Source of the DNA: a bacterium
GTDB taxonomy: Bacteria; SAR324; JACQKK01
Reading direction: 5' to 3'
NCBI GenBank assembly: GCA_965205845.1
Contig: CBDBIG010000003.1
Coordinates: forward strand, 110,040 to 174,039
DNA length: 64,000 nt
Every line of letters begins with the position of its first letter. Within the stretch, counting starts at the first letter, position 1. The position numbers and the translations under genes were made by a program. This document shows positions 6,108 to 27,860 of the stretch, one piece after another. Below the pieces are notes generated by a model. It was not told the origin of the DNA, did no database searches, and saw nothing but the letters and a program-made list of their open reading frames with translations.

Positions 6108-6170
6108 TTTTTAATCGCTGTTTTGTCAAAAAACTGCTCAAAATGGGCGTCGCTTAAAACCAACACACAT

Positions 6171-6899: not shown

Positions 6900-6902
6900 T
6901 GC

Positions 6903-7926: not shown

Positions 7927-7929
7927 GGC

Positions 7930-8430: not shown

Positions 8431-8566
8431 GTTTGTTTTTGTCTATGGTGGATCATCTTTTTTTTAAAACCACCCAATACATCCCAAGGTATATCCGGTG
8501 ATATGCACGCCCCCCACATCCCATTGTAAAGGGTATTTTTCTCTTTTGTCATGGCTTGCCAACAGC

Positions 8567-9817
8567 TTAGCGTACCAATTGGTTGAGTTGTAACAAGGGT
8601 AGCAGTACCGAAAGCACAATAAAACCCACCACCAAACCCATTAGCAAAATTAGCACGGGTTCCATCAAGGCAGATAGGGCATCAATCCGCGAGGTCGTTT
8701 GCTGCTCATAGCGTTCTGCAATGTGGGTCAGCATCACCTCCAAATCCCCTGTTTCCTCACCAATCGACACCATTTGGCACACATCTTCACCAAAAAAAAG
8801 TGCTTTCCTAAGCGCAGAAGCGAGGGTAACTCCGTGATTTTGCACCTGTAAAATCACTGCTTGGAGAGCTTGGCGAAAAAGGTGATTGTCCATGACCTGG
8901 CCTGCTACATGCAAAGCTTGGCGCAATTCAACCCCGCTTGCCAGCAATGCCGCCAAGGTGTTGGCAAAACGATGGACCAACAATTGATGGCGCAACTTAC
9001 CCCATAAAGGCAGTTGCAATTCCCAACGTGCCCAAAACAGCTGACCTTTATGGCTCCGAAACCAGCGAAGGGAAAAAACCCAGGCCAACGTGAGCAGTAT
9101 AATCATCAACCACCACCAATTCACCAAGGCTTCGCTGATGGCAATAAGCATGCGGGTAGGCAGTGGCAATTGCGCATTGAATTGATCAAACAAACGGCTG
9201 ATGCGTGGAATTACAAACAAAACCAAGAACATGGTAACAGCAAAGCCAAAGCAGGTCATAAACAAGGGGTAAGCGGCCGCGCTCAGCAATTTGGTTTCTA
9301 ATCGATGCTGGCGCTCATAATGGTTGGCCAAGCGTTCCATCACCCTTTCGAGGGACGCACTCACCTCCCCTGCACGCATCATATTCACCATTAAGGGGGG
9401 AAAACACTGGGATTGCGTGGCCATGGCGTCCGCCAAATATACCCCACTTTGTACTTGGGCTTGTACCTCACCCAGAGCTGTGCGGAGCAAAGGAGAAGAG
9501 GATTCGCGGATAAGCATGCCAAGGGCTGCATCATAAGGTAGGCTCGCCTTTAACAACACCCGCATTTGTCGCATAAACGCACTTAAATCGGCTGCACCCA
9601 ATTTGGGGCGCAGACCGATGCCATGCAAGCGCAGCCACGCCATGACCCCGGGGGGTACTTCTTTTAGATCGGTGGCATGAATGCCATGCAAGCGCAACCA
9701 TGTACGGGCTTCGCGTTCTGTATTTGCAGAAAATTGCCCTTTTACAACGGCTCCTTGCTGATCGATTCCCTTATAGGCGTACAAATCATCTCCCTCTGCC
9801 AAGGGTTTTTGACCCAA
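8567..9817 (-). CDS. gspF: Type II secretion inner-membrane platform protein GspF
   Basis: 416 aa with two T2SS-F-type repeats, three hydrophobic segments and the GEETGDLEVML motif. Confidence 0.85.
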   Translation of the reverse strand: MGQKPLAEGDDLYAYKGIDQQGAVVKGQFSANTEREARTWLRLHGIHATDLKEVPPGVMAWLRLHGIGLRPKLGAADLSAFMRQMRVLLKASLPYDAALGMLIRESSSPLLRTALGEVQAQVQSGVYLADAMATQSQCFPPLMVNMMRAGEVSASLERVMERLANHYERQHRLETKLLSAAAYPLFMTCFGFAVTMFLVLFVIPRISRLFDQFNAQLPLPTRMLIAISEALVNWWWLMIILLTLAWVFSLRWFRSHKGQLFWARWELQLPLWGKLRHQLLVHRFANTLAALLASGVELRQALHVAGQVMDNHLFRQALQAVILQVQNHGVTLASALRKALFFGEDVCQMVSIGEETGDLEVMLTHIAERYEQQTTSRIDALSALMEPVLILLMGLVVGFIVLSVLLPLLQLNQLVR

Positions 9818-9831
9818 AATAGTACATGTTT

Positions 9832-10953
9832 TTAACGCTTCCTCGATCGCTTACGCTTTTGACGCAAAGGCTCAATTTGGTAGCGGAACACCGCCCAATT
9901 ATGCTCACGTAGGGTACGTGAAAAATGGTGCAGACCATTTCCCTTGCCCACAAAAAATAGATAGTGCGAGGGTGTGGGTTGCACCACTGCTTGCATGCTC
10001 TCCTTACCTGGGTTTGCAATAGGGGTAGGGGTTAAACCTTGAATGCTATAAGTGTTATAAGGCGTATAGGTGCGCAAGTGCTTGCGGGTAATGTTGCCAT
10101 TGTAGTCTTCAATGCCATAAATCACGGTAGGGTCGCTTTGCAGTTTCATGCCCCTTTTTAAGCGGTTGTGAAACACCGAGGCAATGAGTGGCCGTTCTTT
10201 GGGAGCCCCGCTTTCTTTTTCGACAATCGAAGCCATAATAAGTGCTTGGTAAGGGGTTAGATTTGTACGCTGTGCTTTTTGCTTTAGCAATGGCCATGCT
10301 TGCACCAAAAACTGCCCCACCATTACGCGGAGCATACGCTTTGCTTCCATTCCTTCGCTTAACACATAGGTCTCAGGAAAAAGCAGCCCTTCAAGGGTTT
10401 TAGGGGGGATGGCAAAGGGCAAATTGAGAGTGCGAATAAAGTGTTGGTCTTTCGATAACTGCAAAAATCCCTTGGCAGAAAGCACTTTTTTTTCTTCTAA
10501 CCGCGCCGCAATTTGCTTTAGCGTAAAGCCTTCGGGAATGGTAACCAACACCTGTTGGACACTCCCTCGCACGAGTTTGTCGAGCAAGGAGTTGGCTGAA
10601 AGCCTGCCTTCAAAGGTATAAACACCCGCTTTAATGCGAACTGCATCCCCACGAAAACGCGCCAACCACAGCAAAGTGTGAGGGTTTTGAATGCGCTTGT
10701 TGTCTTTCCAGCGCCCCACCATGTGAATAAATGCTTCTCCACGACGCGCCTTTAGCGAGACAGGAGCAGGTTCTTGAATGCTAGTGCTAAGGGTGCCCCA
10801 CAACAAGACTACAGGCTTGGCACCAAACAACAACAACAAAGCGACCCCTACGCTCCATACCCAGGGGCTTTTAAACAGGGGTTTGGTTGTATCTTGAGGG
10901 GACGTCGGTTGAGTTTGGGTTGGCATGAGGGTTTTAAAAAAATAGGGTTTCAT
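9832..10953 (-). CDS. mltG: Endolytic murein transglycosylase MltG (YceG family)
   Basis: N-terminal TM segment. YceG-like motifs LIMASIVEKE, DPTVIYG, YNTY..GLTPTPIANPG. Confidence 0.85.
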   Translation of the reverse strand: MKPYFFKTLMPTQTQPTSPQDTTKPLFKSPWVWSVGVALLLLFGAKPVVLLWGTLSTSIQEPAPVSLKARRGEAFIHMVGRWKDNKRIQNPHTLLWLARFRGDAVRIKAGVYTFEGRLSANSLLDKLVRGSVQQVLVTIPEGFTLKQIAARLEEKKVLSAKGFLQLSKDQHFIRTLNLPFAIPPKTLEGLLFPETYVLSEGMEAKRMLRVMVGQFLVQAWPLLKQKAQRTNLTPYQALIMASIVEKESGAPKERPLIASVFHNRLKRGMKLQSDPTVIYGIEDYNGNITRKHLRTYTPYNTYSIQGLTPTPIANPGKESMQAVVQPTPSHYLFFVGKGNGLHHFSRTLREHNWAVFRYQIEPLRQKRKRSRKR

Positions 10954-11065
10954 GGATGCGTAATCTTGGTGGCAATCCCCAAGAAAGAGCGTGCTACCTA
11001 CCCTAGGCTAAGGCATCAATGCAAAAACCACGAACCCAGCAAACGGGTAGGTTCCACCATGTTGC

Positions 11066-12052
11066 TTAGTTAACTGGGTTAATCCGCGGGCTGGCAATTG
11101 CCCCTCGAATATAAAAGCCGTTTTTGTTGCTAGCAAGTTGCGCTTGCACAATTTGCCCCAACGGGCCGATTTGCTGTACCCAGGCGGGTGCCAGTTTGCC
11201 CAATATTTTCAAGTCTAATACTGAGTGGGCTGGCTGGCGAAAATTGACCACAATACTACCAGATATCTTGAATGATGCATTCCCCTTCCCCTCAAAGGTT
11301 TCGATTTCTAAGCGGTTATTTTTAAGCCCAGCGCGCAAAACCACTTGGGCTAGCACCAAATCGGGCAGAACACGTGTTAGCAGCTTGACACCACTTAACT
11401 TTATTTGTGCACCTCGCAGTTCTGCCATGGCACTTTGTAAGGGAAAAGAGCCCTTGTGGCTACGTTTAAAACGGGTATTTAGCTGCCAATCTCCCTGCAG
11501 TTGTCCTTGCATGTCGTGTGGTAGGTCAAACCTGCGCCCCCCATCAATGGCAGGTCCAAGAAACGCCATTTTTAACTCCCATGAATCGGCCATCCCAAAG
11601 GGTGCTAACAGGGTTATTTCCCCTTGCTGTTTTTGGATTGTGCCACGAAACACCACGCCCAAGGGAAAAAAATGAGGTGACAACGAGGCGTGATCTATAT
11701 GCAAAAAAATTCTGCTTTCTTTTTGTAGAACAACCCTTTCCATTTTTAATGTAGTCCAACCAAAATGCATCTTTTGGATGTTAAGTAGCATTCCTGTGTG
11801 CTGTTTTACCGTATTAACCAGAATATTTTCCATTCTTGCTACGGGGAGATAATATTTAAATGCACTCCACGTTCCTAAAATGAAAACCAATAAACACGCT
11901 GCAACCTTTACAGCACGATGTACCCAGTAAGGCCATTTTAGCAGCGGTTCTAAAAATTTTTTCACCCAACTTGCCCCTAGTATAACCCTGCTTAGAGAGG
12001 AGTTGCTAAAGCAAAGCCTCGACACGTAGCACCAAGCGAAGCAACTCAGCAT
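11066..12052 (-). CDS. GspN-like type II secretion accessory protein (tentative)
   Basis: Single N-terminal TM (VKVAACLLVFILGTWSAF) followed by a beta-rich periplasmic region. Follows the gspM-like gene. Start uncertain because it overlaps the end of the upstream gene. Confidence 0.4.
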   Translation of the reverse strand: MLSCFAWCYVSRLCFSNSSLSRVILGASWVKKFLEPLLKWPYWVHRAVKVAACLLVFILGTWSAFKYYLPVARMENILVNTVKQHTGMLLNIQKMHFGWTTLKMERVVLQKESRIFLHIDHASLSPHFFPLGVVFRGTIQKQQGEITLLAPFGMADSWELKMAFLGPAIDGGRRFDLPHDMQGQLQGDWQLNTRFKRSHKGSFPLQSAMAELRGAQIKLSGVKLLTRVLPDLVLAQVVLRAGLKNNRLEIETFEGKGNASFKISGSIVVNFRQPAHSVLDLKILGKLAPAWVQQIGPLGQIVQAQLASNKNGFYIRGAIASPRINPVN

Positions 12053-12491
12053 TATGTAAAGACTGTATAACTTCCATGGTATTGATCACCAACAAATTGG
12101 CATCGCTTTCAATGGCGTGCACAATATACACCATCTCATCAATGCTAATATCATCCACTTGCATTTCAACCTCTTGCAGACCCGCTACGCTACTATTGCC
12201 GATTGGATTAAGTTGAATGCGTTGCCTGATGCCAAAGCGATCCGCAATATTTTCTAATTGTGCGGTAAGCGATATCCGGCTAATTTGTTCTTGAAATTTT
12301 TGCTGTTGCTGTTGTTGTTCTGCGAGCACACCCAATTCTTTTAGCACGTTTTCCATGCGTTCAATTTGTTCATCCGATGACGCGCTACCAAAAAGCCCTC
12401 GACCCCCCACAAAATAAAGACCTACGCCCAGCACCACCACACCCAATAAAATGAGCAATTTTTTCTCGCGGTCATTGAGTTTCATAAGCAA
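12006..12491 (-). CDS. GspM-like type II secretion protein (tentative)
   Basis: ~160 aa. N-terminal TM (KKLLILLGVVVLGVGLYFVG), a coiled segment, then a small alpha/beta domain. Follows the gspL-like gene. Confidence 0.5.
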   Translation of the reverse strand: MLMKLNDREKKLLILLGVVVLGVGLYFVGGRGLFGSASSDEQIERMENVLKELGVLAEQQQQQQKFQEQISRISLTAQLENIADRFGIRQRIQLNPIGNSSVAGLQEVEMQVDDISIDEMVYIVHAIESDANLLVINTMEVIQSLHNAELLRLVLRVEALL

Positions 12492-12672
12492 TTAGGGCTC
12501 TATTTTTTATGATGATGAACACGCCGAGTTACCCCAAAATGCTGTCGATGGGGCGCAAAGCAAGCCTTGGTGACGAATTGAGATGAAGAGGCATGAGGAT
12601 TATGGAAATTTTTGAAACCAGCCATTTACCGCCTAACATACACAAAAAAACATTGGAACCAGCATAGCATCC

Positions 12673-14487
12673 TTACTTAGCCTTGGTGATTTGAATCTGA
12701 AAAGCCACTTTTTCTCCACTGCGCTTTTGACTCACACTCACTTTTTGTTCATCAAATACAGGGATATTTAGGAGGTAGATTTTCACAGATTCCACATCTT
12801 CAAAGCGCGTGGCCTCACCATTCAGCCTCAATTGCTCGCGCCCCACATACAAATTTTTTAAGTGCATTCCTTCGCGCTGAGACACCCCTTGCGATATCTG
12901 ACTGAGCCATTTAGACATTTGGTAATCGTAGTCCACAAAATGCTGGAGACGCTTTTCTTTTTCTTGGGCGTTGCGTACATTTTTTTTGCGCACGTTAAAT
13001 GCTGCGTCAATATTTTCGATGCTGGTATTACGCGGCAACTTTAGGATATGCGTAATTTGTGCTTGTACATTTTTCCGCTGCTCTTTTTGTGCAATGTTTT
13101 TTAAACCAAAGCCCAAAACCTCGAGCGACAACCACACTCCCAATGAAACGGCAAGGGCGAGAGAGCGCATGCGGTGTACTTTAACCCAACCAAGCCATGG
13201 GGTGGCACTGCGATAAAAAGTGGGGCTTTGCTGTGCCGCAACAAAGGGCGCGTTCTTTTCACCAGGCAAGGCAGACAGCACCCCCCAATGGGCTTTTTTT
13301 TGTTTGCAAAGTGCCGCCAAGCGCCACTCAAAGCGCAGGCGTAAAGCCCTTGTGTCCCATGTGAAGCAAGGTGAAAACAGACCCAAAACACGCACCTCAC
13401 ACGTTTGCAGCAAAGAGACCTCCGCCACAATAAACCGATTGATGGCTTCAGTACTGTCTTCTAAAGCATGGCGCAATGCCTGAGTAAACTTGCTTGGTGT
13501 CCAGTTTGATTGAAAAACACTCTCTTGTGTGTTTTGGGTTTCATGTTGCAGTCTTTCCCATACTGCAATGGGTGAATGTACCGTGGGTTGCAATGCCTCT
13601 TTTAAAATATCGCCAACTTTGCAATAGATATGTTGCATTTGGTGCAGATGCCCACCTGCCGTGGCACTCACAAACACTTCGTCTGCACCAACGTAAACTT
13701 GAAAATGAACGCCTTGCAATGGGGGTCCCCATGCATGCTGCAGTAAATGAGCAGATGAAATGGTACGCAAAACCCCACCCCCAGTTTCCTCAATGGCTTG
13801 GGTAATTTGCTGAAGGCGCTTTTTGGATTGCATGAGCACAAAAGCACGAGAGCCTTTGTCGTTGCGATGCTGATGCAAAGAAAAACACCATGCATACCTA
13901 TCCAAATTATCTAACATTTTTTCTGCTAGCATAAAGGACAGTATTTTGCTGGCTTTTGGTTTATTTTGCGTGGGTAGAGAAAACGCGTGAAAGTGCAAAA
14001 AGGTCGTAGGCAGTACGAGGATAACCCTACCAAACTGGTATTGATTGTGTTTAATCAACCCTGATAACATTTGGTTTAGAGCGTGGTGCTCTTTCTCACC
14101 CAATGCATGCTGCGGGCTTTCGTCCGATGCTTGTATACGCTGCCTACCACCCCATGTCCCGGTATCAACCGAAACCGCCGGGCTTCCCAGAGCCCCTTTG
14201 GGAAAGGGCCTTGGAAATGCTGACACGGCACTCACCGACACCACCTTTTGGACACCGGCCTCATGGTGCCACTCAAATCCCTCCAAAAAAGGGGGAGAAA
14301 ACGACAGGATATAGGCTGCGCGCTGGAAGAAGAGGCGTTCGGCGAGGGCTTGGAAAAGGTTGCGCAAAACGATGAGACCTACACGGCGTGCATCCACACG
14401 AAAGCGACCACGCCTTCGTCGAGAAAGCTTCCCACCCCCGAAAAAATGACGCACACACCGCCTCGATCCTGACTGAAACCCAAACAA
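12673..14487 (-). CDS. GspL-like (actin-like cytoplasmic domain + TM + periplasmic domain) type II secretion protein (tentative)
   Basis: Central TM (SLALAVSLGVWLSLEVLGFGL) separates a ~300-aa cytoplasmic part from a ~150-aa C-terminal part. Gene order L-M-N. The Arg-rich N-terminal ~140 aa look non-coding; the ATG at 14070 is a plausible true start. Confidence 0.45.
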   Translation of the reverse strand: MFGFQSGSRRCVRHFFGGGKLSRRRRGRFRVDARRVGLIVLRNLFQALAERLFFQRAAYILSFSPPFLEGFEWHHEAGVQKVVSVSAVSAFPRPFPKGALGSPAVSVDTGTWGGRQRIQASDESPQHALGEKEHHALNQMLSGLIKHNQYQFGRVILVLPTTFLHFHAFSLPTQNKPKASKILSFMLAEKMLDNLDRYAWCFSLHQHRNDKGSRAFVLMQSKKRLQQITQAIEETGGGVLRTISSAHLLQHAWGPPLQGVHFQVYVGADEVFVSATAGGHLHQMQHIYCKVGDILKEALQPTVHSPIAVWERLQHETQNTQESVFQSNWTPSKFTQALRHALEDSTEAINRFIVAEVSLLQTCEVRVLGLFSPCFTWDTRALRLRFEWRLAALCKQKKAHWGVLSALPGEKNAPFVAAQQSPTFYRSATPWLGWVKVHRMRSLALAVSLGVWLSLEVLGFGLKNIAQKEQRKNVQAQITHILKLPRNTSIENIDAAFNVRKKNVRNAQEKEKRLQHFVDYDYQMSKWLSQISQGVSQREGMHLKNLYVGREQLRLNGEATRFEDVESVKIYLLNIPVFDEQKVSVSQKRSGEKVAFQIQITKAK

Positions 14488-14712: not shown

Positions 14713-16659
14713 TCAAATTGTCTCCATTTCAGTCTCTACTTCCTCTATGCCTTCTTCTTGCGGGACATCACCCATCACCTCACCTCCAGAAGAAGCAAAC
14801 TCACCAGCAATATCCGACCGTTCTGTCGAGCGACGACGGGAAAAAGAAGCAAACGCTTGATCTTGAAAACCAGAGGATGTGCTCGACAAAAATTCGTTTA
14901 AAACATTGGCCATGTTCATCATGGTTGCACTCTTGCGCTTAATGCTTACAATGTCGATATCCAATAGCAACCCCGGACTCATATGGTATGGGTTCACTTG
15001 CGAGGTAAACCTTTTGAACTCATTCTCCAAGAACCGCACCCGGCCTTCCACTAAAGCACGAACCATGGGCGTCCTCCCGCCAAAAATTTTCTTCATCCTC
15101 TCACACATGATGGGAAACCGCAGTTCAATACTCTCAATCCGGGATTCGTAAGTCGAATTTTCTGCAACCACGGGTGGTTCTTCAGGATGAATAAAATGGA
15201 TTTCATTCCATTTCTTTTCGTGCGGTGCTGCACCCTCCTCGCTTTCTTCTTCCTCGTCCCCACTAAACAAAAAGCGAAACCACGAGCGACGACGTTCGGC
15301 CACCCGGCCACCCAACAGCGCACTTGAAAAATTTTCCCAGTTCTCCACACCATTGTCTTGTTGGTGCTCATCAAACATCTCTTCAACGACTTTCCATATT
15401 TCATCCACCGTACGTTGAAACTCATTTAACTGCGCCAAAAACGCTTCTTGCATTCGATGCAGTTCTACATCGGTGTAATAGTTTAGCACCATTTGATAGC
15501 GTTCATCGGGCAAACTCTCTTCATCGGCAGTTTCATACTCACGAATGATCAATCTACGGTCATAGCGAAAATTCTCAATGTGTTGATACCCCATCCGACT
15601 CCAATCCAACACATGGGTCAACGAGTTTATGGCAGTGTTCCAACCACGGCTACGAATATTGTCTTTATCAATCACTGAAATGATGCTATCGCGTAGACCA
15701 AGGGCATCAAAATCCTCGAACTTCAGGTTATTCTCCGCACTCCCCAAACCATCAAAAACTTTTTTGGGGATGAAGGCATAACGCAACGACTCGTTATGTT
15801 CCGTGTCATCAGAAGTGTATTTCTCCAGTGCCTTAATGCGTTCAAACACTTTTTCCTCGGCAGAAATCTCCGGTTTCCCTGAATCAATCATCTCCTCGTT
15901 GAGGGCTTCGATCTCTTTATCAATCGATTCAGTAATGCGATTGGTAACAACATCTTTTAGCAGGTCTATCGCAGCCGTCTGATAAGGGTATATGCGGCTA
16001 ATAAGCTCACTTTCATCTATATTGAGTGCTAATTTAAGCATCATCACATTTTCAGGTTTTTGCGGATGATCTCTAAAAGAGCACTTGGCAATAGCGTAAG
16101 CATTTTCACCACGCACAAAGGCACCCACATCCGTCTTGCGACGCAGCAGACTGTTGGTAGTGGTTTCTAAATCATTCATTTCACGCTGTACATGACCATG
16201 TAAGTGCCCATACATATTAACGATCGAACGCTCAAGCTCACCTGTATGGAATTTGTCAGACCCCCCAACACGATCTAACAAATAAGAAATAGCACGTGGG
16301 CTATAGCGATTCAAACTACGCATCTCTTCCATATCGACCAAGTCGCGCACCTTCTTGCCCATCTCGTCCTCAACCGTGGTCAAGTAGCGGTTAAGCATGT
16401 TTTGCATATTTTGATTATAGTAATTATGCAATTTAGACTTAACGGTCGTCATCACCTCCATTTTGCTCAACACCTCCGGTGGCAACTTGGAATGGATGTG
16501 ATTAAGTATTTTGTCTACCTCCTCATCAACAAAGAGGCGCCCCTCCATGTATTCATCACGTTGATCTCGGTTGATACTATTACGTGATCCAACTGCACTG
16601 GGAATCTCTGGGTGGACAACGTTTGGGCCGCGAGTAAGAATGTTGTCGGCGGACATCAA
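14713..16659 (-). CDS. Uncharacterised 648-aa cytoplasmic protein, paralogue A
   Basis: Long uninterrupted ORF. Collinear similarity over its full length to ORF 20541..22364, e.g. GPNVVHPEIPSAVGSRNSINRDQRDEY vs GPNLIHPETPSAVGSRNSVNRDDRDEY, MGYQHIENFRYDR vs MGYQHIENYRLAR, and NPYHMSPGLL vs NPYHLQPGLM. No signal peptide, TM segment or Walker motif seen. Acidic C-terminal tail. Confidence 0.85.
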   Translation of the reverse strand: MMSADNILTRGPNVVHPEIPSAVGSRNSINRDQRDEYMEGRLFVDEEVDKILNHIHSKLPPEVLSKMEVMTTVKSKLHNYYNQNMQNMLNRYLTTVEDEMGKKVRDLVDMEEMRSLNRYSPRAISYLLDRVGGSDKFHTGELERSIVNMYGHLHGHVQREMNDLETTTNSLLRRKTDVGAFVRGENAYAIAKCSFRDHPQKPENVMMLKLALNIDESELISRIYPYQTAAIDLLKDVVTNRITESIDKEIEALNEEMIDSGKPEISAEEKVFERIKALEKYTSDDTEHNESLRYAFIPKKVFDGLGSAENNLKFEDFDALGLRDSIISVIDKDNIRSRGWNTAINSLTHVLDWSRMGYQHIENFRYDRRLIIREYETADEESLPDERYQMVLNYYTDVELHRMQEAFLAQLNEFQRTVDEIWKVVEEMFDEHQQDNGVENWENFSSALLGGRVAERRRSWFRFLFSGDEEEESEEGAAPHEKKWNEIHFIHPEEPPVVAENSTYESRIESIELRFPIMCERMKKIFGGRTPMVRALVEGRVRFLENEFKRFTSQVNPYHMSPGLLLDIDIVSIKRKSATMMNMANVLNEFLSSTSSGFQDQAFASFSRRRSTERSDIAGEFASSGGEVMGDVPQEEGIEEVETEMETI

Positions 16660-16732
16660 TCGCTCCTTTTATTTACTGATGGGTGCACTAGGTGCCTTAT
16701 AGGTTGATACAGGGATACAATTCAAGAACAAA

Positions 16733-19318
16733 TTAGCCCCTTCGGGCTATATCGAGTTTCATGGCAGACAATTTTGCAATGGGCACTCCGTACGGGGCAC
16801 TTACCACAAAATCTAGTCCAGTTTTATACGCAAAATCAATATTTTCGGGCTCGTAAACGTATGACCCAACCCCCCCGATCTCAATATCTGGTCTAATCAT
16901 ACGTCCATACTGCACCACAGCAGAAACCAACTCTTTCACGGGCACAGAAAGAACCTCGAAGGGGTTGTCCTTCAAGATATCATACTGATTATATGCAGGC
17001 AAAAACGTGTTTAGATCATCGGCTGACATCCCGTTGGCGGTCTGTGTCAGCATGGTGAAATCAATCACAAAAAACTCAGCTTGTTTTGCTAGATGCCCAG
17101 CCATCAAAGTGGCAGCGGGTAAATCAATCACGGCACCCACACGGTAATTCAGTTCGGTATTCGTTTCACCCAATTCTTTCAGCACTTGCTGTTCAATCCC
17201 ACGCACACCATGAATAACGTTGCTTTCAATATTACGTCCATGGCGAATAAAGCGCATCTCCGCATCTCCAACGACACCAGAGACGCACAAATCAAAATCA
17301 AGTTTGACCCCCGATTTTCGAGCTCGGCAAGCACCATAAAAAATACCCCCAGAAATTGCCTGATAAATCTCAGGGTAGGCAATGCAAATTCTCCCACCAC
17401 GTTGCCCCATCATGGGGTTTACGTTCCGCAAGTTGCTGGCTCTAGAATTAAAATGCTCAATCTCAACCCCATGCAACTGGGATATTTCTTGAAACAACCG
17501 CTCACGAGCATGACTATCGACAGGCAAAAACTCAATCAACGGGGTGTTCAACAAGCGTATGATAACCTTTTTACCATCCATTTTCTTAAAAAGATCTTCG
17601 CAAACACCACTCAACACGTCACGAAACCTTTTTAGCGCAGAAGTATATTTTTCTTTCTCCCCATACAATAAAACAACCTCCTGGAACAAGCGCGCTGTCT
17701 TCTCGTCGCGCATCATCGCTTCAACAGGCAGCAAGCCGATACCACCAGCACCCAGACGAATGCTTGAATCCACATCACCAACCGTAGCAGCCAATCCCAA
17801 TATTCGCAGATTCGTTCCCACACCATCCGTCACGTCAATCGCGCGTATAAATTCCTCCAATCCATTTTTTGCTGTATCAGGAAACTGCATACTGGCTTCA
17901 CCAAACCATACACTAGGCTCAGTGTACGTTGGGGATTCAAGGGAAATTATATCCCACTCATTCACCCGTTCCCCGCCAATGGTGGCGTAACCGTCAAAAA
18001 ACTGGACATCAGAATACAGCAAGCAAGGTTTACGCAAACTTCTCGAAACCACAGGTGCGTGAGAAGAATACCCGCCGACCGAAGCAAGCACACCCGCACA
18101 CATCTCAATGCCTTCAACATCTCCGGCATCCGTATGAGGCATTACCAAAATAAAATCTGCTTTTTCACCTTTCAAGGAACAACGGCGATGCTCTGCCAAC
18201 AAAGCATGGGTGCTAAAACACACGCGGCCAACGGCAGCCCCAGGTGACCCTGCAATACCCCCCTTGATCATTTTTAGATTGGTAACACTTGCATGATCAA
18301 TAACAGGGTGTAACAAATCTTGCATTTGGCCCGCGGGTACTGCATGCACAATGTCTTCACGCGTTAACAACTTTTTTCGGTATAGATCAAGCAGCGTTCT
18401 AATCTCAGCTTGAGTTGATTTGCCATCCACGGGGGTTTGCTCAATCAGCCATATTTTGCCATCTTCAATGGTGAATTTAATCTCACGAATATCTTTGAAA
18501 CTGGATTCAAGCAAACTACACATTTCTTGCAGCTGCTTTAAATAATTGACATCTAATTTTTCCAATGGCCGTCCACTTTCCTTTGAAACATCAAAAGAAT
18601 TCATCGAAAACACACCATTAATGCCTGCTGAACCGGTCACAATATCGCGTGAATACAGATGCCCACTCCCAGAATTCTCATTCCAGTTGCCATAGACCAG
18701 CAGTTGTACCAGTAGGGCCGCCTCAATGTCCTCGTTCATGTCATCGGCCAAATACCGTTTTGCGGTCTGGCTTAACACTGTTTGCAATTGCTCATAACCA
18801 TCTTGAGGAAAATCTTTGATAGGCCCTTGCAAATAGGCTTGACATATCTCCTTGCTTGCTGTTTTCCCTTGCACAGCATCCTCGATGCTCTTGACGTCCC
18901 GCCCCAAAAAAACGCTGCCAAATCTCTCCAATAACACCTTGTATTCATGATACGTAAACTCATCCCCCCAGCGTTTGGCAAGGCCTTCGGCAACACGATC
19001 ATTCATCCCAATGGTATGGGTAGATCTAAATGTACCGATCTGGATAGAGGGAGAGACAACCACTTTAAGTAGCATTGGTTTTTCAGGATTGCCAAATTCT
19101 CTGCCTGCAATGCTCTCTATTTTTCGAATGGCGGGCTTCAACGCAGCCAAATCCAACTCGACCAGCGCAGGCAAGTCCTTTGACTCAATCAAAAAGCCCG
19201 GCACTAAAGGTGTATTCAAACTTGCCAACTGCAGCAAATTGCGCCCACGCAAGCCAAACCGCTCTTGCAGGTCATTTCCTTCAACATGTTCTTTCTGATT
19301 AAAATGGAAAAATTGCAT
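16733..19318 (-). CDS. Pyruvate,phosphate dikinase (PPDK)-like protein with degenerate catalytic motifs
   Basis: 861 aa, collinear with PPDK. Phospho-His motif GGYSSHAPVVSRS is retained; NPMMGQRGGR and LNTPLIEFLP are recognisable. ATP-grasp and PEP/pyruvate-site motifs are substituted (details in findings). Confidence 0.85.
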   Translation of the reverse strand: MQFFHFNQKEHVEGNDLQERFGLRGRNLLQLASLNTPLVPGFLIESKDLPALVELDLAALKPAIRKIESIAGREFGNPEKPMLLKVVVSPSIQIGTFRSTHTIGMNDRVAEGLAKRWGDEFTYHEYKVLLERFGSVFLGRDVKSIEDAVQGKTASKEICQAYLQGPIKDFPQDGYEQLQTVLSQTAKRYLADDMNEDIEAALLVQLLVYGNWNENSGSGHLYSRDIVTGSAGINGVFSMNSFDVSKESGRPLEKLDVNYLKQLQEMCSLLESSFKDIREIKFTIEDGKIWLIEQTPVDGKSTQAEIRTLLDLYRKKLLTREDIVHAVPAGQMQDLLHPVIDHASVTNLKMIKGGIAGSPGAAVGRVCFSTHALLAEHRRCSLKGEKADFILVMPHTDAGDVEGIEMCAGVLASVGGYSSHAPVVSRSLRKPCLLYSDVQFFDGYATIGGERVNEWDIISLESPTYTEPSVWFGEASMQFPDTAKNGLEEFIRAIDVTDGVGTNLRILGLAATVGDVDSSIRLGAGGIGLLPVEAMMRDEKTARLFQEVVLLYGEKEKYTSALKRFRDVLSGVCEDLFKKMDGKKVIIRLLNTPLIEFLPVDSHARERLFQEISQLHGVEIEHFNSRASNLRNVNPMMGQRGGRICIAYPEIYQAISGGIFYGACRARKSGVKLDFDLCVSGVVGDAEMRFIRHGRNIESNVIHGVRGIEQQVLKELGETNTELNYRVGAVIDLPAATLMAGHLAKQAEFFVIDFTMLTQTANGMSADDLNTFLPAYNQYDILKDNPFEVLSVPVKELVSAVVQYGRMIRPDIEIGGVGSYVYEPENIDFAYKTGLDFVVSAPYGVPIAKLSAMKLDIARRG

Positions 19319-19495
19319 GGCAACATATGTTTCTTTATCAAATTTTCCTCATAGCAGAACAATGTACAACTGAAACATGCAACAAGGTATTGGGTTTAAA
19401 TCTCTTGATCCAGCAAGCCAAAGAAATCCATCACAGAAATATGCCCCATTTTAAACGAAGCAAAACGCCGCGGCGCAAACAACAAGCATCGCAAC

Positions 19496-20479
19496 CTAGA
19501 ATAACTTTAACACTTTATTCACATCCACCTTAATAAAGATCTCATACCTCATGCTAGCACCTTCATATAAATAGCGCTGAAGCTTTGCGACACCCTTTAT
19601 TTCTTCCCCAGAAATACTGATAAGCAAAACATCACCGTGTTTTACCTTGCCCCATTTAAACAAGGCGTTGATGTTGTTTACCTTTTCACCATCATGAAAA
19701 ATATGCACATCGAGGCCAGCATACTTTGCTTTGTAACTCTCAACAATGTTTTTCCACGCCTCCACGTTTCCATTATGAAACAACTCATTGGTAACCTGCA
19801 CGCTATACTTCGGGGTCATGACAATCTTCTTCCCTGAACTCGTCGCTTTGGGGGGAGGCGATTTCCCCTTAACAGCAGGTTTTCTGGCTGGCACAGCTGT
19901 GGATTTAGAATGTGCAGCAGATTTGCTGGCAGCAGAGGTAATTTTAGGTTTGGGTGCAGGTTTAGGTCTTGGTGGAGCTCCGCCTAAGTTTTCCAACCCA
20001 CTCGGAGTAAGGCCTTCCAATACGGCAAAAAGAGCTCTCGCGGCTCTCTGCTCAAGATCAGCATCCTGAACATCGTACGCTTTAGCGTACACCACCATCA
20101 ACTCATCGGGCGTAACCTCTTGTACGTTTTCCCAATGTTTTTTTACCTTTGGGTTAATCAAAGTCACACCCATTTGCGGTTGATGGTACGCCACAACCAT
20201 GTCGACACGATTCCACTTGGACACCACTTCACACAACGCGTCAAAATCGTTGTACCTTTCGCGCACATTGCGCGACACCACCGTATACCCCATCCGCTCA
20301 ATAATTACAGCATTGAGCAAAGGCCCTATTTGCATCTTACTGACATTGTCCATTGCGTCAATAATGTTTGCTAAATTGCTGGTTTTCAACATCCTAACAA
20401 TGCCGGTCACCAAACGAAAATGCCCCAGCGAGCGATTGAACCCTCCACGGCTGCTCAAAGAAGAAAAATCATTAATCAC
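19496..20479 (-). CDS. Uncharacterised 327-aa two-domain protein with Pro/Lys/Ala/Ser-rich linker
   Basis: ORF between paralogue B and the PPDK-like gene. ~165-aa N-domain, linker GGAPPRPKPAPKPKITSAASKSAAHSKSTAVPARKPAVKGKSPPPKATSSGKK, ~100-aa C-domain. No motif I recognise. Confidence 0.7.
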   Translation of the reverse strand: MINDFSSLSSRGGFNRSLGHFRLVTGIVRMLKTSNLANIIDAMDNVSKMQIGPLLNAVIIERMGYTVVSRNVRERYNDFDALCEVVSKWNRVDMVVAYHQPQMGVTLINPKVKKHWENVQEVTPDELMVVYAKAYDVQDADLEQRAARALFAVLEGLTPSGLENLGGAPPRPKPAPKPKITSAASKSAAHSKSTAVPARKPAVKGKSPPPKATSSGKKIVMTPKYSVQVTNELFHNGNVEAWKNIVESYKAKYAGLDVHIFHDGEKVNNINALFKWGKVKHGDVLLISISGEEIKGVAKLQRYLYEGASMRYEIFIKVDVNKVLKLF

Positions 20480-20540
20480 TGATCACCCTAAATAAAACCT
20501 TTCCTATCAACTATCAATAGCCCATGAAGAAAATGAAACC

Positions 20541-22364
20541 TCAAGAATTCGCTGCTTCCCCCCCAAACGCATCGCTACCCTCATCCTTGATGTTGGCGTG
20601 TCTGCGGCTTCCAGTAACTACAGGCTGCCTATAGCCACTCGAAATGCGTGACAAAAACTCGCTCATCACATTCGACATTCCAGCAACAGTCACCTGCCGG
20701 CGCTTGATGCTCGTCAGTTTGAGTTGAATCATCAACCCTGGCTGCAAGTGGTATGGGTTCACAACACTCGAAAAACGAATAAACTCATCCTCTAAAAAAA
20801 ATAACCTGCTCTCGACAACTTCTCTATTTACTGGATGACGTTTCCCAAAAATTTGCGTTAGGCGCCTTCTAATAATCAAGAAACGCTCGCGAAACTCCGT
20901 GCTTAACTCTTCATAAGTGCGATTCATCTCCTCCAAGGTGCTTAGCTCACGCTGAATAAACACCACTTCATTCCATTTGCGATTCGGTTCAACGCTTTCA
21001 TCGCGATGAAACCAACCAGAACCCCCGCGACCTACCGTCTCACTCACAACATCACCCCAGTCGCGTAAATGGCTAGAAGTTTTCTCTTCGAGGTACACCT
21101 GTTCAACCACATTCCAAAGGCGCATTATCTCGCGTTGAAATTCGAGCAGTTGTGCAGTATAGGCAGCCTTTTGGGCTCGCATTCCATCCGCATCTACGTA
21201 TTCCATGTAAATCTCAAAACGCTCATCAGGCAACGTATCTTGCAGTGTGCTTTCATACTCACGCAACACCATTTTACGCGCCAAGCGATAGTTTTCAATA
21301 TGCTGATAACCCATGCGGCAGTTGTCTAAAATCGAGGTGATCGAATTAATTGCCGTATACCAACCGCGGGTGCGCAACGCTTCATGCTCAAGCATCTCAC
21401 TTGATGCCACTTCAAAAGTGAGCGGATCAGCCCCTTCACCACGCAAATCGGGCGTAATATTGCGAATACGCTCAAGCATGTCCTGGGAAAGCAGCTGATT
21501 AATGAGCGCATTGTCACCATCCTCCACAGCCAACCCCTGCTCGACCGCTTTTAATTTTTCAAACACCGCCTCGTTCGGGCTCAAAGCTTTGCGCCCCTCG
21601 CCTTCCAATTGGCGATTAATCTCGTCAATTTCCTTATCTACAAGTTCTCGCAAGCGCTTGGCAACCACATCTTTAATCAAAAATTCTGTGGGCAACAAAT
21701 GGTGTACAATCGGGGATATCAACTCAGATTCCAACACATTAATTGCAATATCAATGTCCACGACCTCTTCTGGTTTTCGCACATTGTCATGGAAACTGGC
21801 TCTCACCACCGCATACGCATTGGCACCATTGATAAAGCCTCCCACGTCAGACTGCCTGGTTAAAATCCGAATGGTCGCGTTTTCAAAATCGGCGGAACCA
21901 CGCGCAACATGACCTTGCAAATGCCCCATAATATTCACCGTGGATTTCTCGACCTCGGCGGTGTTGAAATCAGCACCACCCATTTGATTCAACAACCCAG
22001 CCACTTCCCGCGGCGTATAGCGATTCAATGCGTGATGTTCCTCTTTGTCCACCATATCGCGCACCTTCTTAGACATCTCATCTTCAACGGTGGTCAGGTA
22101 GCGGCTGAGCATATTTTGCATGCTTTGGTTAAAATAGGTATGCAAATGCGACTTTACATTCCCCTGCACAGTCATGTCTTGCAACACTTCAGGAGGCAGT
22201 TTGGCTTGAATATGGTTGAGAATCTTATCCACCTCTTCATCAATCATCGACCGTGATTCCACGTATTCATCGCGGTCATCACGGTTTACGCTGTTGCGAG
22301 ACCCTACCGCGCTAGGCGTCTCTGGATGAATTAAATTTGGTCCTCTGCGAAAATCACTACCCAT
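20541..22364 (-). CDS. Uncharacterised 607-aa cytoplasmic protein, paralogue B
   Basis: Full-length paralogue of ORF 14713..16659 (see that entry). First gene of the co-directional module. Confidence 0.85.
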   Translation of the reverse strand: MGSDFRRGPNLIHPETPSAVGSRNSVNRDDRDEYVESRSMIDEEVDKILNHIQAKLPPEVLQDMTVQGNVKSHLHTYFNQSMQNMLSRYLTTVEDEMSKKVRDMVDKEEHHALNRYTPREVAGLLNQMGGADFNTAEVEKSTVNIMGHLQGHVARGSADFENATIRILTRQSDVGGFINGANAYAVVRASFHDNVRKPEEVVDIDIAINVLESELISPIVHHLLPTEFLIKDVVAKRLRELVDKEIDEINRQLEGEGRKALSPNEAVFEKLKAVEQGLAVEDGDNALINQLLSQDMLERIRNITPDLRGEGADPLTFEVASSEMLEHEALRTRGWYTAINSITSILDNCRMGYQHIENYRLARKMVLREYESTLQDTLPDERFEIYMEYVDADGMRAQKAAYTAQLLEFQREIMRLWNVVEQVYLEEKTSSHLRDWGDVVSETVGRGGSGWFHRDESVEPNRKWNEVVFIQRELSTLEEMNRTYEELSTEFRERFLIIRRRLTQIFGKRHPVNREVVESRLFFLEDEFIRFSSVVNPYHLQPGLMIQLKLTSIKRRQVTVAGMSNVMSEFLSRISSGYRQPVVTGSRRHANIKDEGSDAFGGEAANS

Positions 22365-23515
22365 GACGTTTCCTGCATATTATTGAAGTCAGATACGGTT
22401 ATTTGGTTCGAGAGTTCGAGCATAGCGGCACAAGCGCACCAAATGCCAGCACCCAATCGATGGATGCCCTCTTTATCCCAAAATCAAATGAAAACTGGCT
22501 CTCATCATATCACTGTTCGTTACAACGGATTGCCCACAGCAACAATCAACCGATGATTACAAAGCAACCCTGCTCCCACCAATACCTGCATGGAAGCGAG
22601 CATGTCCAGCAAAAAATGAGGCCCCCACGCTGCTTATAATGAAAGCACAAACCCTTTGAACCATCCATCCAAGCGGGCATTGTCGCCTACACGCGCATAA
22701 TAGGCACATCACGCATTATGGTGCTAGCAAAATTTTACCTCAGGAGCCAATTTTTTATTACCCAATTTGTACGTAGCAACTCAAGATCGCATATTGTGCT
22801 TGTTCACCAAGCCCATGCGGTAAGGTCAAAGCAGCTATGCCAAAACCGTCATTTCAGCCTAATCTCTAATTAACACGCACCTGACTACCCACCTCCGAGT
22901 ATTGCAAATACCCCAACCATTGGCGACACACCATAACCGCACCTCAACACAAAAAATAAGTCCCATCCTCAATATTGCAAAACCTCAGCAAAGGGATGGC
23001 ACCCATTCCCAGCAACCATAGCAGCTTTATTCTTGTTCATCATCATTTTGATGGGGGATTGATTTCCTGCGTTGTCTCGTCCTCTAGCCAACCTTTCCCT
23101 TTGCAAAGATCGCAAAGGCGTTTGGAGCAGAGTGTGCTTTTTGGATGCTGACCTTAATAGTTTATTGAAGATCTATCTGATCGAGCGAGGATGCGTTATG
23201 CAGTAGAAAACATGAACACCAAATGGTTGTGCCAATTTGTGTTCGCCCTTGATTTTTGGGGAGATGTCCCTTGGGTAATTAATGTTAGTCTGGGGATGTC
23301 CCGGCACACGCTCAAGTTGTGGTGAGGTCAACCCCTGTTTGAAATAGCCTGTAAACATAGTTTGCACGCTGGCCGTGCCATGGTTTTCCGTCGCTGTCAA
23401 TCCGATGAACTTGAAGGTGGTGTGGGCTATTGCGGCGGTGATGGAATGGAATGAGGTGCGAGACACAAAACAACGGGTTTAAGCCAAAAACAATGGGCGA
23501 TGGTTTAACGTTTCC

Positions 23516-24449: not shown

Positions 24450-25868
24450 TTAACTTGATGCCGGAGGTAGCGTAACTGAAGTGGGACCGACAGAGTCTTG
24501 AAACTGGTCTGGAAAGGTGCCACTTCGCTTTCTACCATATTTCCCCCAACAAAAAACATCGCCATTTTCAACAAGGGCACAGCTGTGATAGTGCGATGCA
24601 GACACTGCTTCCACCTGAGGGTTAGCCCCTGGCATCGACACGGATACAGGCAAAGATGGGGAAGGGGTGTTGCCATCACCTAGTTGGCCGTGGTTGTTGC
24701 GCCCCCAGCACATGGCGCGGCCCTCTACCACGGCACAACTGTGATAATAACCAGCACTCACTGCTTCCACCTGAGGGTTAGCCCCTGGCATCGACACGGA
24801 TACAGGCAAAGATGGGGAGGCGGTGTTGCCATTGCCTAACTGACCGTAGTCGTTGCGCCCCCAGCACATGACACCCGTATTCAATTCGCCACTCTTTTTT
24901 ACCAAGGCGCAGGCATGGTTCCCGCCCAACGAGATAGCCTTGACACCACTCTCAAGCCCTTGCACTTGTGTAGGGGTGTAAGACGAAGAACCAGCGGTGG
25001 CAGATCCAAGCATCCCATACGAATTTATCCCCCAACATTTGGCTGCTCCATCGATGATGGCACAGGCACTTGTGGAACCTATGTCAATCGCACGCACCCC
25101 GCTCGATAAACCTGTTGAGGATACGGAATAAAATCCAGCCTCTTTCCTTCCATTGCCCAGTTGACCATGGACGTTATTGCCCCAACACATGGCCTCCTCG
25201 TCGAGGATGGCACAAGCACTCCTGGGGCCAATGCTTACGCCACTTACCCCACGGGGTAGATTTTTCACATACCTCCCCTCCCATCTGGAATCGACCGGAT
25301 CAGAGGGATTCTCCGCCTTGAAATCATCATAAAAACCCTTTCCCCAACAGATAACGCGGCCATCACGGATAACACAACCATGCTGAGATCCGTTGGCAGA
25401 TATCGCGGTAATTGTGGATGCCGCCTTGGTTGTGGACGCCGGTTGGGGTGGCATGGTAACTTCGCGCGCCTCGATGGCTGCGGGTAATCTCGAAGAAGAG
25501 ACACGCAAGCAAAACACGCGATTGCTTTTAAGTACGCACGCCCTCTTGTCATTTCTGCTCATCATAACAAGCTCCTCAAGCAAAGGGCCAATAGGTGCCG
25601 CCCCACCTGAGCCTCCCGTCAAATTATCCTCCGGGATGGCGTTCGAGGCACCGGAGGCAGATGATGCCTCATCTGTGTTTGCAACAGGGGAACCACCACC
25701 TTCGGAGCAACTAAATAGAAAAAGGGCACCCGTGAACACCACAGCGAGGGCAATGTTTTTGGAGGGTATGCCTCGTAAACTGCAGCAGGATTTTTGTAAA
25801 AACATTAGAAACAATCTTTCTTCATAATTAACACGATACAATGTACGGTGCAGACCAACGCGGTTCAC
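24450..25868 (-). CDS. RCC1-repeat (beta-propeller) lipoprotein
   Basis: Lipobox ALFLFS|C. Repeated CWG(R/N)N.(Y/H)GQLG(N/D)G blades (CWGNNVHGQLGNG, CWGINSYGMLGS, CWGRNDYGQLGNG, CWGRNNHGQLGDG). Likely start is the ATG at 25805. Confidence 0.8.
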   Translation of the reverse strand: MNRVGLHRTLYRVNYEERLFLMFLQKSCCSLRGIPSKNIALAVVFTGALFLFSCSEGGGSPVANTDEASSASGASNAIPEDNLTGGSGGAAPIGPLLEELVMMSRNDKRACVLKSNRVFCLRVSSSRLPAAIEAREVTMPPQPASTTKAASTITAISANGSQHGCVIRDGRVICWGKGFYDDFKAENPSDPVDSRWEGRYVKNLPRGVSGVSIGPRSACAILDEEAMCWGNNVHGQLGNGRKEAGFYSVSSTGLSSGVRAIDIGSTSACAIIDGAAKCWGINSYGMLGSATAGSSSYTPTQVQGLESGVKAISLGGNHACALVKKSGELNTGVMCWGRNDYGQLGNGNTASPSLPVSVSMPGANPQVEAVSAGYYHSCAVVEGRAMCWGRNNHGQLGDGNTPSPSLPVSVSMPGANPQVEAVSASHYHSCALVENGDVFCWGKYGRKRSGTFPDQFQDSVGPTSVTLPPASS

Positions 25869-26315: not shown

Positions 26316-26437
26316 AGGGTATCCCCCCTTATAAACAAAGCTTTGCCCCCCCCGCGCACCCCCTTGGCTTATTCAGGAGGGTATCCCCCCTTATAAACAA
26401 AGCTTTGCCCCCCCGCACCCCCTTAAAGCCTATTCAG
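26316..26437. repeat. Tandem array, ~60-62-bp unit x 2
   Basis: GGGTATCCCCCCTTATAAACAAAGCTTTGCCCCCC..GCACCCCCTT..ATTCAGG occurs at 26316 and 26378. The second copy overlaps the stop codon of the 26430..27860 gene. Confidence 0.9.
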
Positions 26438-27860
26438 GCACGCCAGGGAACTCTAAAAAGGGGGCGTTCTCGAGGGTTTCTGTGGGGTCGTTGCCATAGA
26501 TTTTGTCGCCATTACCAAAGCCCAGTTCAGCCTCGGTTAAGCCCCCAGCGATTCCAATACCCAAGTTGTTTGTCGTACCGGTAGAACGGGGCATGTTATT
26601 GCCCACACATTTAAGATTGCCTACGTAGTTAAAGCATAGCCCATCCTTATCGCCGTGTATGGCAACCACACGCGCATTGTGAAACACCCTGGTTGGGCGC
26701 AGAAGGTTGTTTGTATTCCCCAGCCGGTAAATGTCATCGGCGGGGTTGCTGTTGGAACCCCAGCAAAACACCTCAAGCTGCGCGTTGATGGTGCAAGTTC
26801 TGTCTTCAGGCGTAATAATACCCAAAACCCTCCCCAACGAGGCAGCTTTTGCAGGAGGCACTACCTTGACGGGGCGCGATGCGGACCGGGTGCTGCCATT
26901 GCCCACTTCGCCCTTAATGTTTTCCCCCCAACAATACACCGTGGTTGCTTCACCAAGCGCGGCGCAAGTGTGCCTTTTGCCGGCAGATGCTGTGCGGACA
27001 TCGCTTAAAAAACCATCTCCACTGGGGGTGCGCACCCTGCCTGGTGGCGCCGAAGATCTATCACTTGTATTACCTCGACCCAAATAATGGCCTCTAACGG
27101 GGAAAAAACCACTTCTCCAGGTCACCAAGGTAGCATCGCGCATTAACACCACCCAGCCACTGATAAGGCGCGCAGCACCCCTTAGTGTTTCTTGACTTCC
27201 CATTGGGCGGTCGGCCGCCTCAACGGCCAAAGGCGTCGGGGAGCCCTCGTTTGGCGAGGCCCCCGGTACCGCGGGCACTGAGCCTGGGCCAACGCCAAGG
27301 CGATAGTGAGTGCTGGAACCGCCCCAGCAGGCAACCTCGCCTTGGTCGCCAAACACGGCACAAAAGGTCCCATTTCCCGCTGCAATGGAGGTAACCCCCG
27401 TTAGGGTGCCCATATCCCCTAACCTCACCACAGGTCCGGGAACGGGTGTGTAGGAACGACCGGCAGGTGGCGGTAGCCTAATTATACCACGCCCCAATTG
27501 GTAATATTCGTTATTGCCTCTACCAGCATCTTTACCTCCCCAGCATTGGAGCCCACCGTTGATTAGGCGCGCACAAAGCGTGTGTTCTGTTGCCGCCATT
27601 TGAACAATGTCTGCCGTGTTGAAACCCTCCAAGGTAACAAGTACTGGGCGGGTGGGGTAGGGACCATTTGAATATACCGTTGCTGGAAGCCCAGCATACT
27701 GTCCCCAACAATACAACGGACCATGGCTCCATTTCACACACTTGCCACTCCCTCGGTGGACCACCACGGACTCGATAAATAATTTCTCGCGTCTATCTTG
27801 GCCTGGCGTAAAGCAGCTGGCCACAAGCAATAAAAGGCTCAATTTGAGGGCAAGGCGCAT
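26430..27860 (-). CDS. RCC1-like repeat lipoprotein
   Basis: Signal/lipobox MRLALKLSLLLLVAS|C. Degenerate RCC1 blades (CWGGKDAG..YYQLGRG, CWGGSSTHYRLGVG, CWGENIKGEVGNG, CWGSNSNPADDIYRLGN). Confidence 0.75.
   Translation of the reverse strand: MRLALKLSLLLLVASCFTPGQDRREKLFIESVVVHRGSGKCVKWSHGPLYCWGQYAGLPATVYSNGPYPTRPVLVTLEGFNTADIVQMAATEHTLCARLINGGLQCWGGKDAGRGNNEYYQLGRGIIRLPPPAGRSYTPVPGPVVRLGDMGTLTGVTSIAAGNGTFCAVFGDQGEVACWGGSSTHYRLGVGPGSVPAVPGASPNEGSPTPLAVEAADRPMGSQETLRGAARLISGWVVLMRDATLVTWRSGFFPVRGHYLGRGNTSDRSSAPPGRVRTPSGDGFLSDVRTASAGKRHTCAALGEATTVYCWGENIKGEVGNGSTRSASRPVKVVPPAKAASLGRVLGIITPEDRTCTINAQLEVFCWGSNSNPADDIYRLGNTNNLLRPTRVFHNARVVAIHGDKDGLCFNYVGNLKCVGNNMPRSTGTTNNLGIGIAGGLTEAELGFGNGDKIYGNDPTETLENAPFLEFPGVPE

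Follow-up and report, generated by a model that had tools for sequence, protein, structure and literature searches.

A cluster of four co-directional genes on the minus strand of a 64,000-nucleotide stretch of bacterial DNA (contig CBDBIG010000003.1, positions 110,040 to 174,039, here called the window) is probably a CfpA filament cluster of a SAR324-type bacterium, in which two CfpA paralogues are accompanied by two non-catalytic accessory proteins. In order of transcription, the listing of open reading frames (ORFs) contains CfpA paralogue B, a two-domain protein of the TP_0747 family (the adaptor), a protein derived from pyruvate, phosphate dikinase (PPDK) and CfpA paralogue A (Table 1). 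The intergenic gaps measure 61 nucleotides (nt) between B and the adaptor, 177 nt between the adaptor and the PPDK-like gene and 73 nt between the latter and A. No ORF of note is interleaved, and the layout given in the initial annotation of this DNA was recovered unchanged. The CfpA paralogues would form cytoplasmic filaments by polymerising, together as a heteropolymer or separately as two types of filament. The TP0747-like protein and the PPDK-derived scaffold would be non-catalytic, filament-associated parts that bridge, anchor or regulate the filament, and the retained phospho-histidine swivel domain of the one and an invariant histidine of the other may form a docking or signalling contact. 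Our confidence in this reading is dominated by gene identity and synteny, which are secure, while physical assembly is the part that we infer.

CfpA filaments, their role in the chromosome and division of T. denticola, the family models and the CfpA assignment of some proteins from metagenome-assembled genomes (MAGs) are already known. Apparently undescribed are the occurrence outside spirochaetes, the duplicated architecture, the PPDK derivative with its two degenerate sites and the treatment of the conserved three-gene cassette as a functional unit. To call the whole an undescribed cytoplasmic system, as was done initially, is an overstatement, since the filament protein is experimentally known in Treponema and two of the three gene types are covered by curated models. 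The bacterial cytoskeleton formed by CfpA is still poorly understood, and two to three paralogues in a second phylum-level group offer comparative leverage on filament function, independent of spirochaete morphology and periplasmic flagella. The TP0747-family protein and the PPDK derivative are candidates for the unidentified "bridging and anchoring components" of tomography, a phrase from the title of Izard 2004.

The CfpA paralogues and their conserved neighbourhood

The products of the two outer genes are full-length paralogues, as proposed earlier: BLASTP aligns them end to end with 278 of 619 positions identical (45%), 65% positives and E = 0.0, a similarity far beyond chance. All of the shared blocks quoted in the initial annotation are present (GPN..HPE.PSAVGSRNS, LTTVEDEM.KKVRD, MGYQHIEN, LPDER and NPYH..PGL). 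Both proteins match NCBIfam NF040882, "cytoplasmic filament protein CfpA", a curated equivalog model with a cut-off of 500 bits; the scores are 726.6 bits for A and 605.5 bits for B, the match spanning model positions 1–605. Paralogue A is 47% identical over 630 amino acids, end to end, to CfpA of T. denticola (CP051302.1), slightly more than to its own paralogue. The nearest homologues, 50–63% identical, come from MAGs titled SAR324, Lambdaproteobacteria or Deltaproteobacteria, while those from spirochaetes are 46–49% identical. The Pfam family PF27473 (CfpA_C) is precomputed on every listed database homologue of the paralogues, and in NCBI records the name "cytoplasmic filament protein CfpA" is already attached to several of the nearest homologues from MAGs. 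Both flanking genes thus encode CfpA-family proteins. For paralogue A, an ATG one codon inside the TTG start gives the 647-residue database form (P0001).

A Pfam scan with a copy predating PF27473 and PF27497 gave no match for either paralogue or for the 327-residue adaptor, and the paralogues showed no homology to any enzyme family. The anti-phage defence models of PADLOC matched none of the four proteins, and a reading as a defence system was rejected on that ground. In public records several CfpA homologues are misnamed "cytochrome C oxidase subunit II", and one (P0246) sits in a freshwater mussel assembly.

The literature (PMC2776988) likens CfpA to intermediate filaments and ascribes to it a high content of predicted coiled coil. 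T. denticola loses its filaments when cfpA is knocked out, and phenotypes of chromosome condensation and filamentation are also cited (PMC3398590); treponemal filaments are described in the same source as having a "single protein composition". The AlphaFold2 (AF2) model of paralogue A, with a predicted local distance difference test (pLDDT) score of 64.6, consists of long helices broken by three beta-sheet elements. Crescentin, FilP and Ccrp are, like CfpA, nucleotide-independent cytoskeletal proteins, but the helices of the model are interrupted by these beta elements and do not form a continuous coiled-coil rod. The CfpA sequence gave no match in a search against the PDB, and its AF2 model gave no significant fold match there. 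The lack of a Walker or catalytic motif, pointed out in the first description of the paralogues, is consistent with the absence of both Pfam and PDB fold matches.

A scan of one genome per GTDB species yielded 325 relatives of CfpA, of which the best 80 were kept, representing 77 distinct loci. These were compared by tblastn of the four window proteins; the genome of the window itself is not one of the species representatives, the best identity among them being 62%. Thirteen distinct loci contain the full order cfpA(B), TP0747-like, PPDK-like, cfpA(A), and in three more it is cut off by the end of a contig. All of these belong to MAGs with the title SAR324 cluster, Candidatus Lambdaproteobacteria, Deltaproteobacteria or simply "bacterium". 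Two further loci titled "bacterium" (L023 and L047) have the four-gene order but an intact phosphoenolpyruvate (PEP) domain in the PPDK-like protein. Among the informative loci of Spirochaetota, 34 of 36 contain cfpA followed by the TP0747-like and PPDK-like genes. The exceptions, both from spirochaete MAGs (L053 and L056), have a cfpA gene with neither of the others within 10 kb on either side. Across two phyla, over 50 species-level genomes keep the linkage of the cassette, a strong conservation of the kind for which the initial annotation had suggested looking. The three-gene order is ancestral to both phyla, and SAR324-type lineages have added the second cfpA downstream. One locus of the spirochaete type (L063) is in a MAG titled "Candidatus Paceibacterota".

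In T. denticola CP051302.1, the genes for CfpA (681 amino acids), a TP_0747_N protein (341 amino acids) and a "putative PEP-binding protein" (933 amino acids) stand in a row. The Treponema locus (TP0748-TP0747-TP0746; TDE0842-0843-0844) consists of the same three families in the same order and orientation as in the window, where the products are 47% (CfpA), 32% (TP0747-like) and 36% (PPDK-like) identical to those of T. denticola. In both, the PPDK-like protein has a non-canonical nucleotide domain and a conserved phospho-histidine. TDE0842-44 are co-repressed in transcriptomes (PMC3914990). That cfpA of T. pallidum lies two genes from a PPDK gene had been put forward in the initial annotation; it is borne out indirectly, by the family name TP_0747_N, by the designation of TP0746 as Ppdk (PMC10013896) and by the T. 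denticola row. The CfpA-like filament system suggested on that basis finds support at the level of homology and gene order (NF040882 and a neighbourhood conserved across two phyla). The window differs from Treponema in its apparently non-spirochaete host, in the second cfpA after the PPDK-like gene, in the third, solo copy found in related genomes, in its destroyed PEP/pyruvate site (intact in spirochaetes) and in the type II secretion system (T2SS) operon that follows the cluster. CfpA appears to occur outside the Spirochaetota, counter to the statement that it is found exclusively in spirochaetes (PMC2776988); in our literature search, CfpA was not found mentioned together with SAR324.

In a neighbour-joining tree, the A and B sequences form one monophyletic clade each, next to a spirochaete clade and clades of solo copies. 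The window paralogues each cluster with their counterparts from the two closest relatives (L001 and L011), paralogue B being placed in the B clade together with the upstream cfpA copies from 14 related modules. At least ten of the module-bearing MAGs also carry a solo third cfpA on another contig or at another position, and the L001 genome likewise has one; none was found in the window. Recent horizontal transfer from a spirochaete was rejected, given a GC offset of 2–3 points and the deep separation of the SAR324-type and spirochaete clades. The solo genes (L081:8001-9851, L020, L022, L025-L029 and L031-L034) have conserved upstream neighbours, a co-directional gene for a 252-residue protein with no Pfam match and a divergent gene for an H+-translocating pyrophosphatase. 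In two of the loci, L081 and L029, the region about 6.5–9 kb upstream of the solo cfpA contains ftsZ and FHA-domain genes.

The PPDK derivative and the two-domain adaptor

The 861-residue protein can be aligned with maize PPDK (PDB entry 1vbg) in a collinear, end-to-end fashion over about 850 residues (E about 1e-99). It reaches 422.8 bits with the PPDK model TIGR01828, against a curated equivalog cut-off of 843.45. Of the Pfam families, PEP-utilizers and PEP-utilizers_C match, while PPDK_N is below threshold. With PPDK (EC 2.7.9.1; PDB entries 1kbl and 1vbg) it has the three-domain architecture, the collinearity and the GG-x-[ST]-S-H-A motif in common, but key residues of both partial reactions have been replaced. 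This was established by aligning the maize PPDK sequence, the window protein and 40 cfpA-linked homologues. In C. symbiosum numbering, followed by that of the window, the nucleotide site shows the substitutions K22 to R24, R92 to V87 and E323 to K281; Arg337 is not kept, and a deletion has removed the GEDVVAG loop. In the PEP/pyruvate site, R561 is replaced by P531, E745 by D732, N768/D769 by T755/M756 and C831 by S840. In C. symbiosum PPDK, Lys22, Arg92, Glu323, Arg337, Arg561, Glu745, Asn768, Asp769, Cys831 and His455 have catalytic roles. The degenerate PPDK homologue of the initial annotation is confirmed both by the model score and point by point in these residues.

The phospho-histidine itself (His455 in C. 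symbiosum, His420 in the window) is conserved in all 41 cfpA-linked members, window included, in a GGY[AS][AS]HA motif. A non-canonical nucleotide domain is likewise common to all of these members, with Lys22 changed to Arg, Arg92 to Val or Ile, Glu323 to Lys or Arg and the GEDVVAG loop deleted. The spirochaete members have an intact canonical PEP/pyruvate domain (GIGLCRTEHMF, FGTNDLTQ, GLCGEHG and YVSCS). The four-gene SAR324-type members have lost Arg561 (to P, K, A, S, Q or G), Asp769 (mostly to Met) and the SRDD arginine, and in the window and its two closest relatives Cys831 is also lost, to Ser or Thr. Within the SAR324-type group, the three domains are 55–68% identical despite the variable former active-site positions, which suggests purifying selection on a non-catalytic function. 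We judge the 861-residue protein to be a pseudoenzyme and not a dikinase, and we infer that its role cannot be the interconversion of PEP, pyruvate and adenosine triphosphate. The fully degenerate copy of the window is a natural separation-of-function allele and argues for a non-catalytic role. For this lineage, the loss of both PPDK-like active sites favours a structural or regulatory assembly over a pathway, as had been surmised from the gene content.

The "PPDK" of treponemal metabolic reconstructions belongs to the subfamily with the non-canonical nucleotide domain. The cfpA-adjacent treponemal proteins (L079:6001-8802; loci L037-L078) have Arg in place of Lys22, Val or Ile in place of Arg92 and Arg in place of Glu323, and miss the GEDVVAG loop. 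In current NCBI records, the treponemal members appear as "putative PEP-binding protein". If TP0746 is of the same type, as its position suggests, the role in glycolysis assumed for it, that of a dikinase dependent on adenosine monophosphate (AMP) and pyrophosphate (PPi), deserves re-examination. A homology search from the T. brennaborense protein returned T. denticola, T. pedis and T. putidum, but not T. pallidum, among the matches listed. In the database, P0404, whose sequence equals that of the PPDK-like ORF in locus L059 (titled T. brennaborense), is labelled Bacteroides/Prevotella.

The adaptor belongs to Pfam family PF27497 (TP_0747_N), which is precomputed on the window product (P0121) and on all 120 listed homologues, and it is 32% identical to the neighbour of cfpA in T. 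denticola. The database gene call, of 285 amino acids, starts at Met43; the GTG start at position 20479 is the better choice, since the upstream 42 residues (MINDFSSLSSRGGFNRSLGHFRLV...) are conserved in homologues. The AF2 model (pLDDT 76) contains an alpha/beta N-domain (residues 11–154), a disordered linker (about residues 165–220, pLDDT below 50) and a C-domain of b-a-b-b-a-b-a topology, the latter with 80% mean column identity across both phyla. A motif N[ED]LFHNGN, in the window NELFHNGNVEAWK, is present in all 50 complete homologues from the loci. In the model, a 7-residue loop leads from strand 1 to the histidine of this motif, His235, which stands at the N-terminal end of helix 1. In the two closest relatives of the window module (L001:6141-7152 and L011:5998-7000), the N-domain (172–177 amino acids) and C-domain (109–117 amino acids), fused in the window, are separate ORFs, with a spacer of 130–150 nt in place of the linker. 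This separate encoding indicates that the domains are autonomous modules. The only match of the TP0747 profile among PDB sequences, a weak one to the N-terminal part of NusA (E = 0.015), was rejected and is regarded as due to chance. In the literature searched, TP0747 or TDE0843 is not discussed beyond a table entry.

The linkers of TP0747-family proteins are basic, and many spirochaete PPDK-like proteins bear tails rich in Lys, Ala and Pro that resemble histone H1, with precomputed matches to PF07382; P0424-P0427, P0490 and the C-terminus of P0478 are examples. Given the chromosome-condensation phenotype of the cfpA mutant, contact with the nucleoid through such basic tails and linkers is conceivable.

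Weighing the filament cluster against other readings

Several points weigh against a CfpA filament cluster with accessory proteins in this lineage. Filaments have never been seen in a SAR324-type organism, the relatives all being uncultured MAGs, and the apparently non-spirochaete nature of the host is deduced from the labels of the nearest homologues. The physical association of the four products is derived only from conserved linkage and co-regulation, and the single protein composition of treponemal filaments (PMC3398590) does not itself support accessory proteins as stoichiometric components. The CfpA model is mediocre and has no match among solved structures; no polymerisation interface or mechanism can be read from it. 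Finally, the solo copy evolves more slowly than paralogues A and B, and this third gene may be the main filament former.

Of the alternatives, the one that survives best is unlikely itself. It proposes a phosphorelay resembling that of the phosphotransferase system (PTS), in which the PPDK derivative would act as Enzyme I on the histidine of an HPr-like C-domain of the adaptor and so control the assembly or anchoring of the filament. In the lineage of the window, this relay would survive as a vestige or receive its phosphate from another donor. The combination of a canonical PEP domain, a phospho-histidine and a non-canonical nucleotide domain in the spirochaete members corresponds to an Enzyme-I-like logic. 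Like Enzyme I and HPr of the PTS, the spirochaete form pairs a histidine phosphoprotein containing a PEP domain with a predicted HPr-like small domain that contains an invariant histidine. The adaptor C-domain has the topology and size of HPr and is a stand-alone ORF in L001 and L011. His235, preceded by its 7-residue loop past strand 1, occupies a position like that of His15 of HPr, although the match in topology and histidine position is by secondary-structure order only. In a Foldseek search of the PDB with the adaptor model, HPr chains make up most of the top 50 matches, with target-normalised template-modelling (TM) scores of 0.5–0.69 and a probability of at most 0.98, but the E-values are weak (0.03–0.3).

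Other comparisons speak against the relay. An hhalign comparison of the adaptor with an HPr alignment gave a probability of 3.5%, with strands 2–4 and helices B and C in register and the histidine region unaligned. No HPr was found in a profile search of PDB sequences with the adaptor, nor a match to the Pfam HPr family (PF00381). The conserved Arg17 of HPr is absent from the adaptor, and the cassette differs from the PTS pair in having no Enzyme-I-type HPr-binding subdomain. Although the PEP site has been destroyed in the window and its clade, both histidine motifs are invariant there, which a simple PEP-driven relay does not predict. The Enzyme-I/HPr analogy of the C-domain, drawn from a predicted model, is a lead and not a finding. 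We give only a small chance to an ancient Enzyme-I/HPr-like His-to-His relay that would couple PEP status to the spirochaete filament, the SAR324-type form having kept the docking pair while its PEP site decayed. Were it true, TDE0844 would be something other than a conventional AMP/PPi-dependent dikinase, and the same would follow for TP0746 by inference.

A little less probable again is that A and B have acquired a new function, possibly tied to the T2SS/pseudopilus operon, and that the solo third paralogue forms the filament. The clade of solo copies (C) is the most spirochaete-like and the slowest evolving: it has 78% within-clade identity and 56% identity to spirochaete CfpA, and it keeps 72% of the spirochaete-conserved columns (those at least 90% conserved in the alignment of spirochaete CfpA). 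The corresponding values are 63%, 49% and 64% for the A clade and 61%, 47% and 58% for the B clade. B is thus the most divergent paralogue, and the window copy of B keeps only 51% of these columns. The PPDK-like partner has degenerated in parallel, and genes for GspL-like and GspM-like proteins are located directly 3' of paralogue A, both in the window and in most related modules. This adjacency is not seen in spirochaetes, L023 or L047, however, and may be mere lineage synteny. Moreover, over its full length A is 47% identical to a filament protein defined by experiment, both copies pass the equivalog model, and it is A and B, not C, that are accompanied by the TP0747-like and PPDK-like partners.

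An ordinary metabolic PPDK, placed fortuitously between two cfpA genes, is scarcely credible: the full-length similarity to PPDK structures and the frequent annotation of homologues as "pyruvate, phosphate dikinase" would fit it, but the score is about half the TIGR01828 cut-off, R92, E323, R561, N768/D769, C831 and the GEDVVAG loop are lost, the linkage is kept in two phyla with co-regulation in T. denticola, and NCBI now uses the PEP-binding name for the treponemal members.

Coordinates, composition and surroundings of the cluster

The coordinates of the cluster and its surroundings are collected in Table 1. The stretch upstream of paralogue B contains no ORF of at least 100 amino acids, and an Rfam search of it gave no credible match. 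A scan of the cluster for promoters and terminators gave results at chance level and provides no evidence for an operon.

Table 1. Features of the cluster and its surroundings, in positions of the window
Feature	Position	Strand	Remarks
T2SS/pseudopilus operon	2253-14487	-	Same strand as cluster; directly follows paralogue A
cfpA paralogue A	14713-16659	-	648 aa (amino acids) from TTG; extra copy 3' of PPDK-like gene
PPDK-derived putative pseudoenzyme	16733-19318	-	861 aa; three-domain PPDK architecture and phospho-histidine motif
Phospho-histidine His420 codon, PPDK-like protein	18059-18061	-	GGYSSH(420)APVV motif
TP_0747-family two-domain adaptor	19496-20479	-	327 aa, GTG start
Adaptor C-domain	19499-19822	-	Residues 220-327
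Invariant His235 codon, adaptor C-domain	19775-19777	-	Motif N-E-L-F-H-N-G-N-V-E-A-W-K
Adaptor linker	19823-19984	-	About residues 166-219; basic, Pro/Ala/Lys-rich, disordered
Adaptor N-domain	19985-20479	-	About residues 1-165
cfpA paralogue B	20541-22364	-	607 aa; first gene of cluster, in the position of the single spirochaete cfpA
Non-coding stretch 5' of paralogue B	22365-23515		1.15 kb; presumed promoter/leader region of cluster
RCC1-repeat (beta-propeller) protein genes (two)	24450-25868, 26430-27860	-	Upstream of cluster, same strand

The T2SS operon contains GspL-like, GspM-like, YceG, GspF, GspH and N-methyl pseudopilin genes. The GC content of the module is 45.8%, compared to 47.7% for the adjoining T2SS genes and 49.1% for the whole window. 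The module is therefore richer in AT than the secretion genes, as had been remarked, but only marginally. Its GC skew is strongly negative, which is attributed to the purine-rich coding strand of charged proteins. A gap comparable to that upstream of paralogue B, of about 790 nt, is present upstream of the paralogue B gene of L001.

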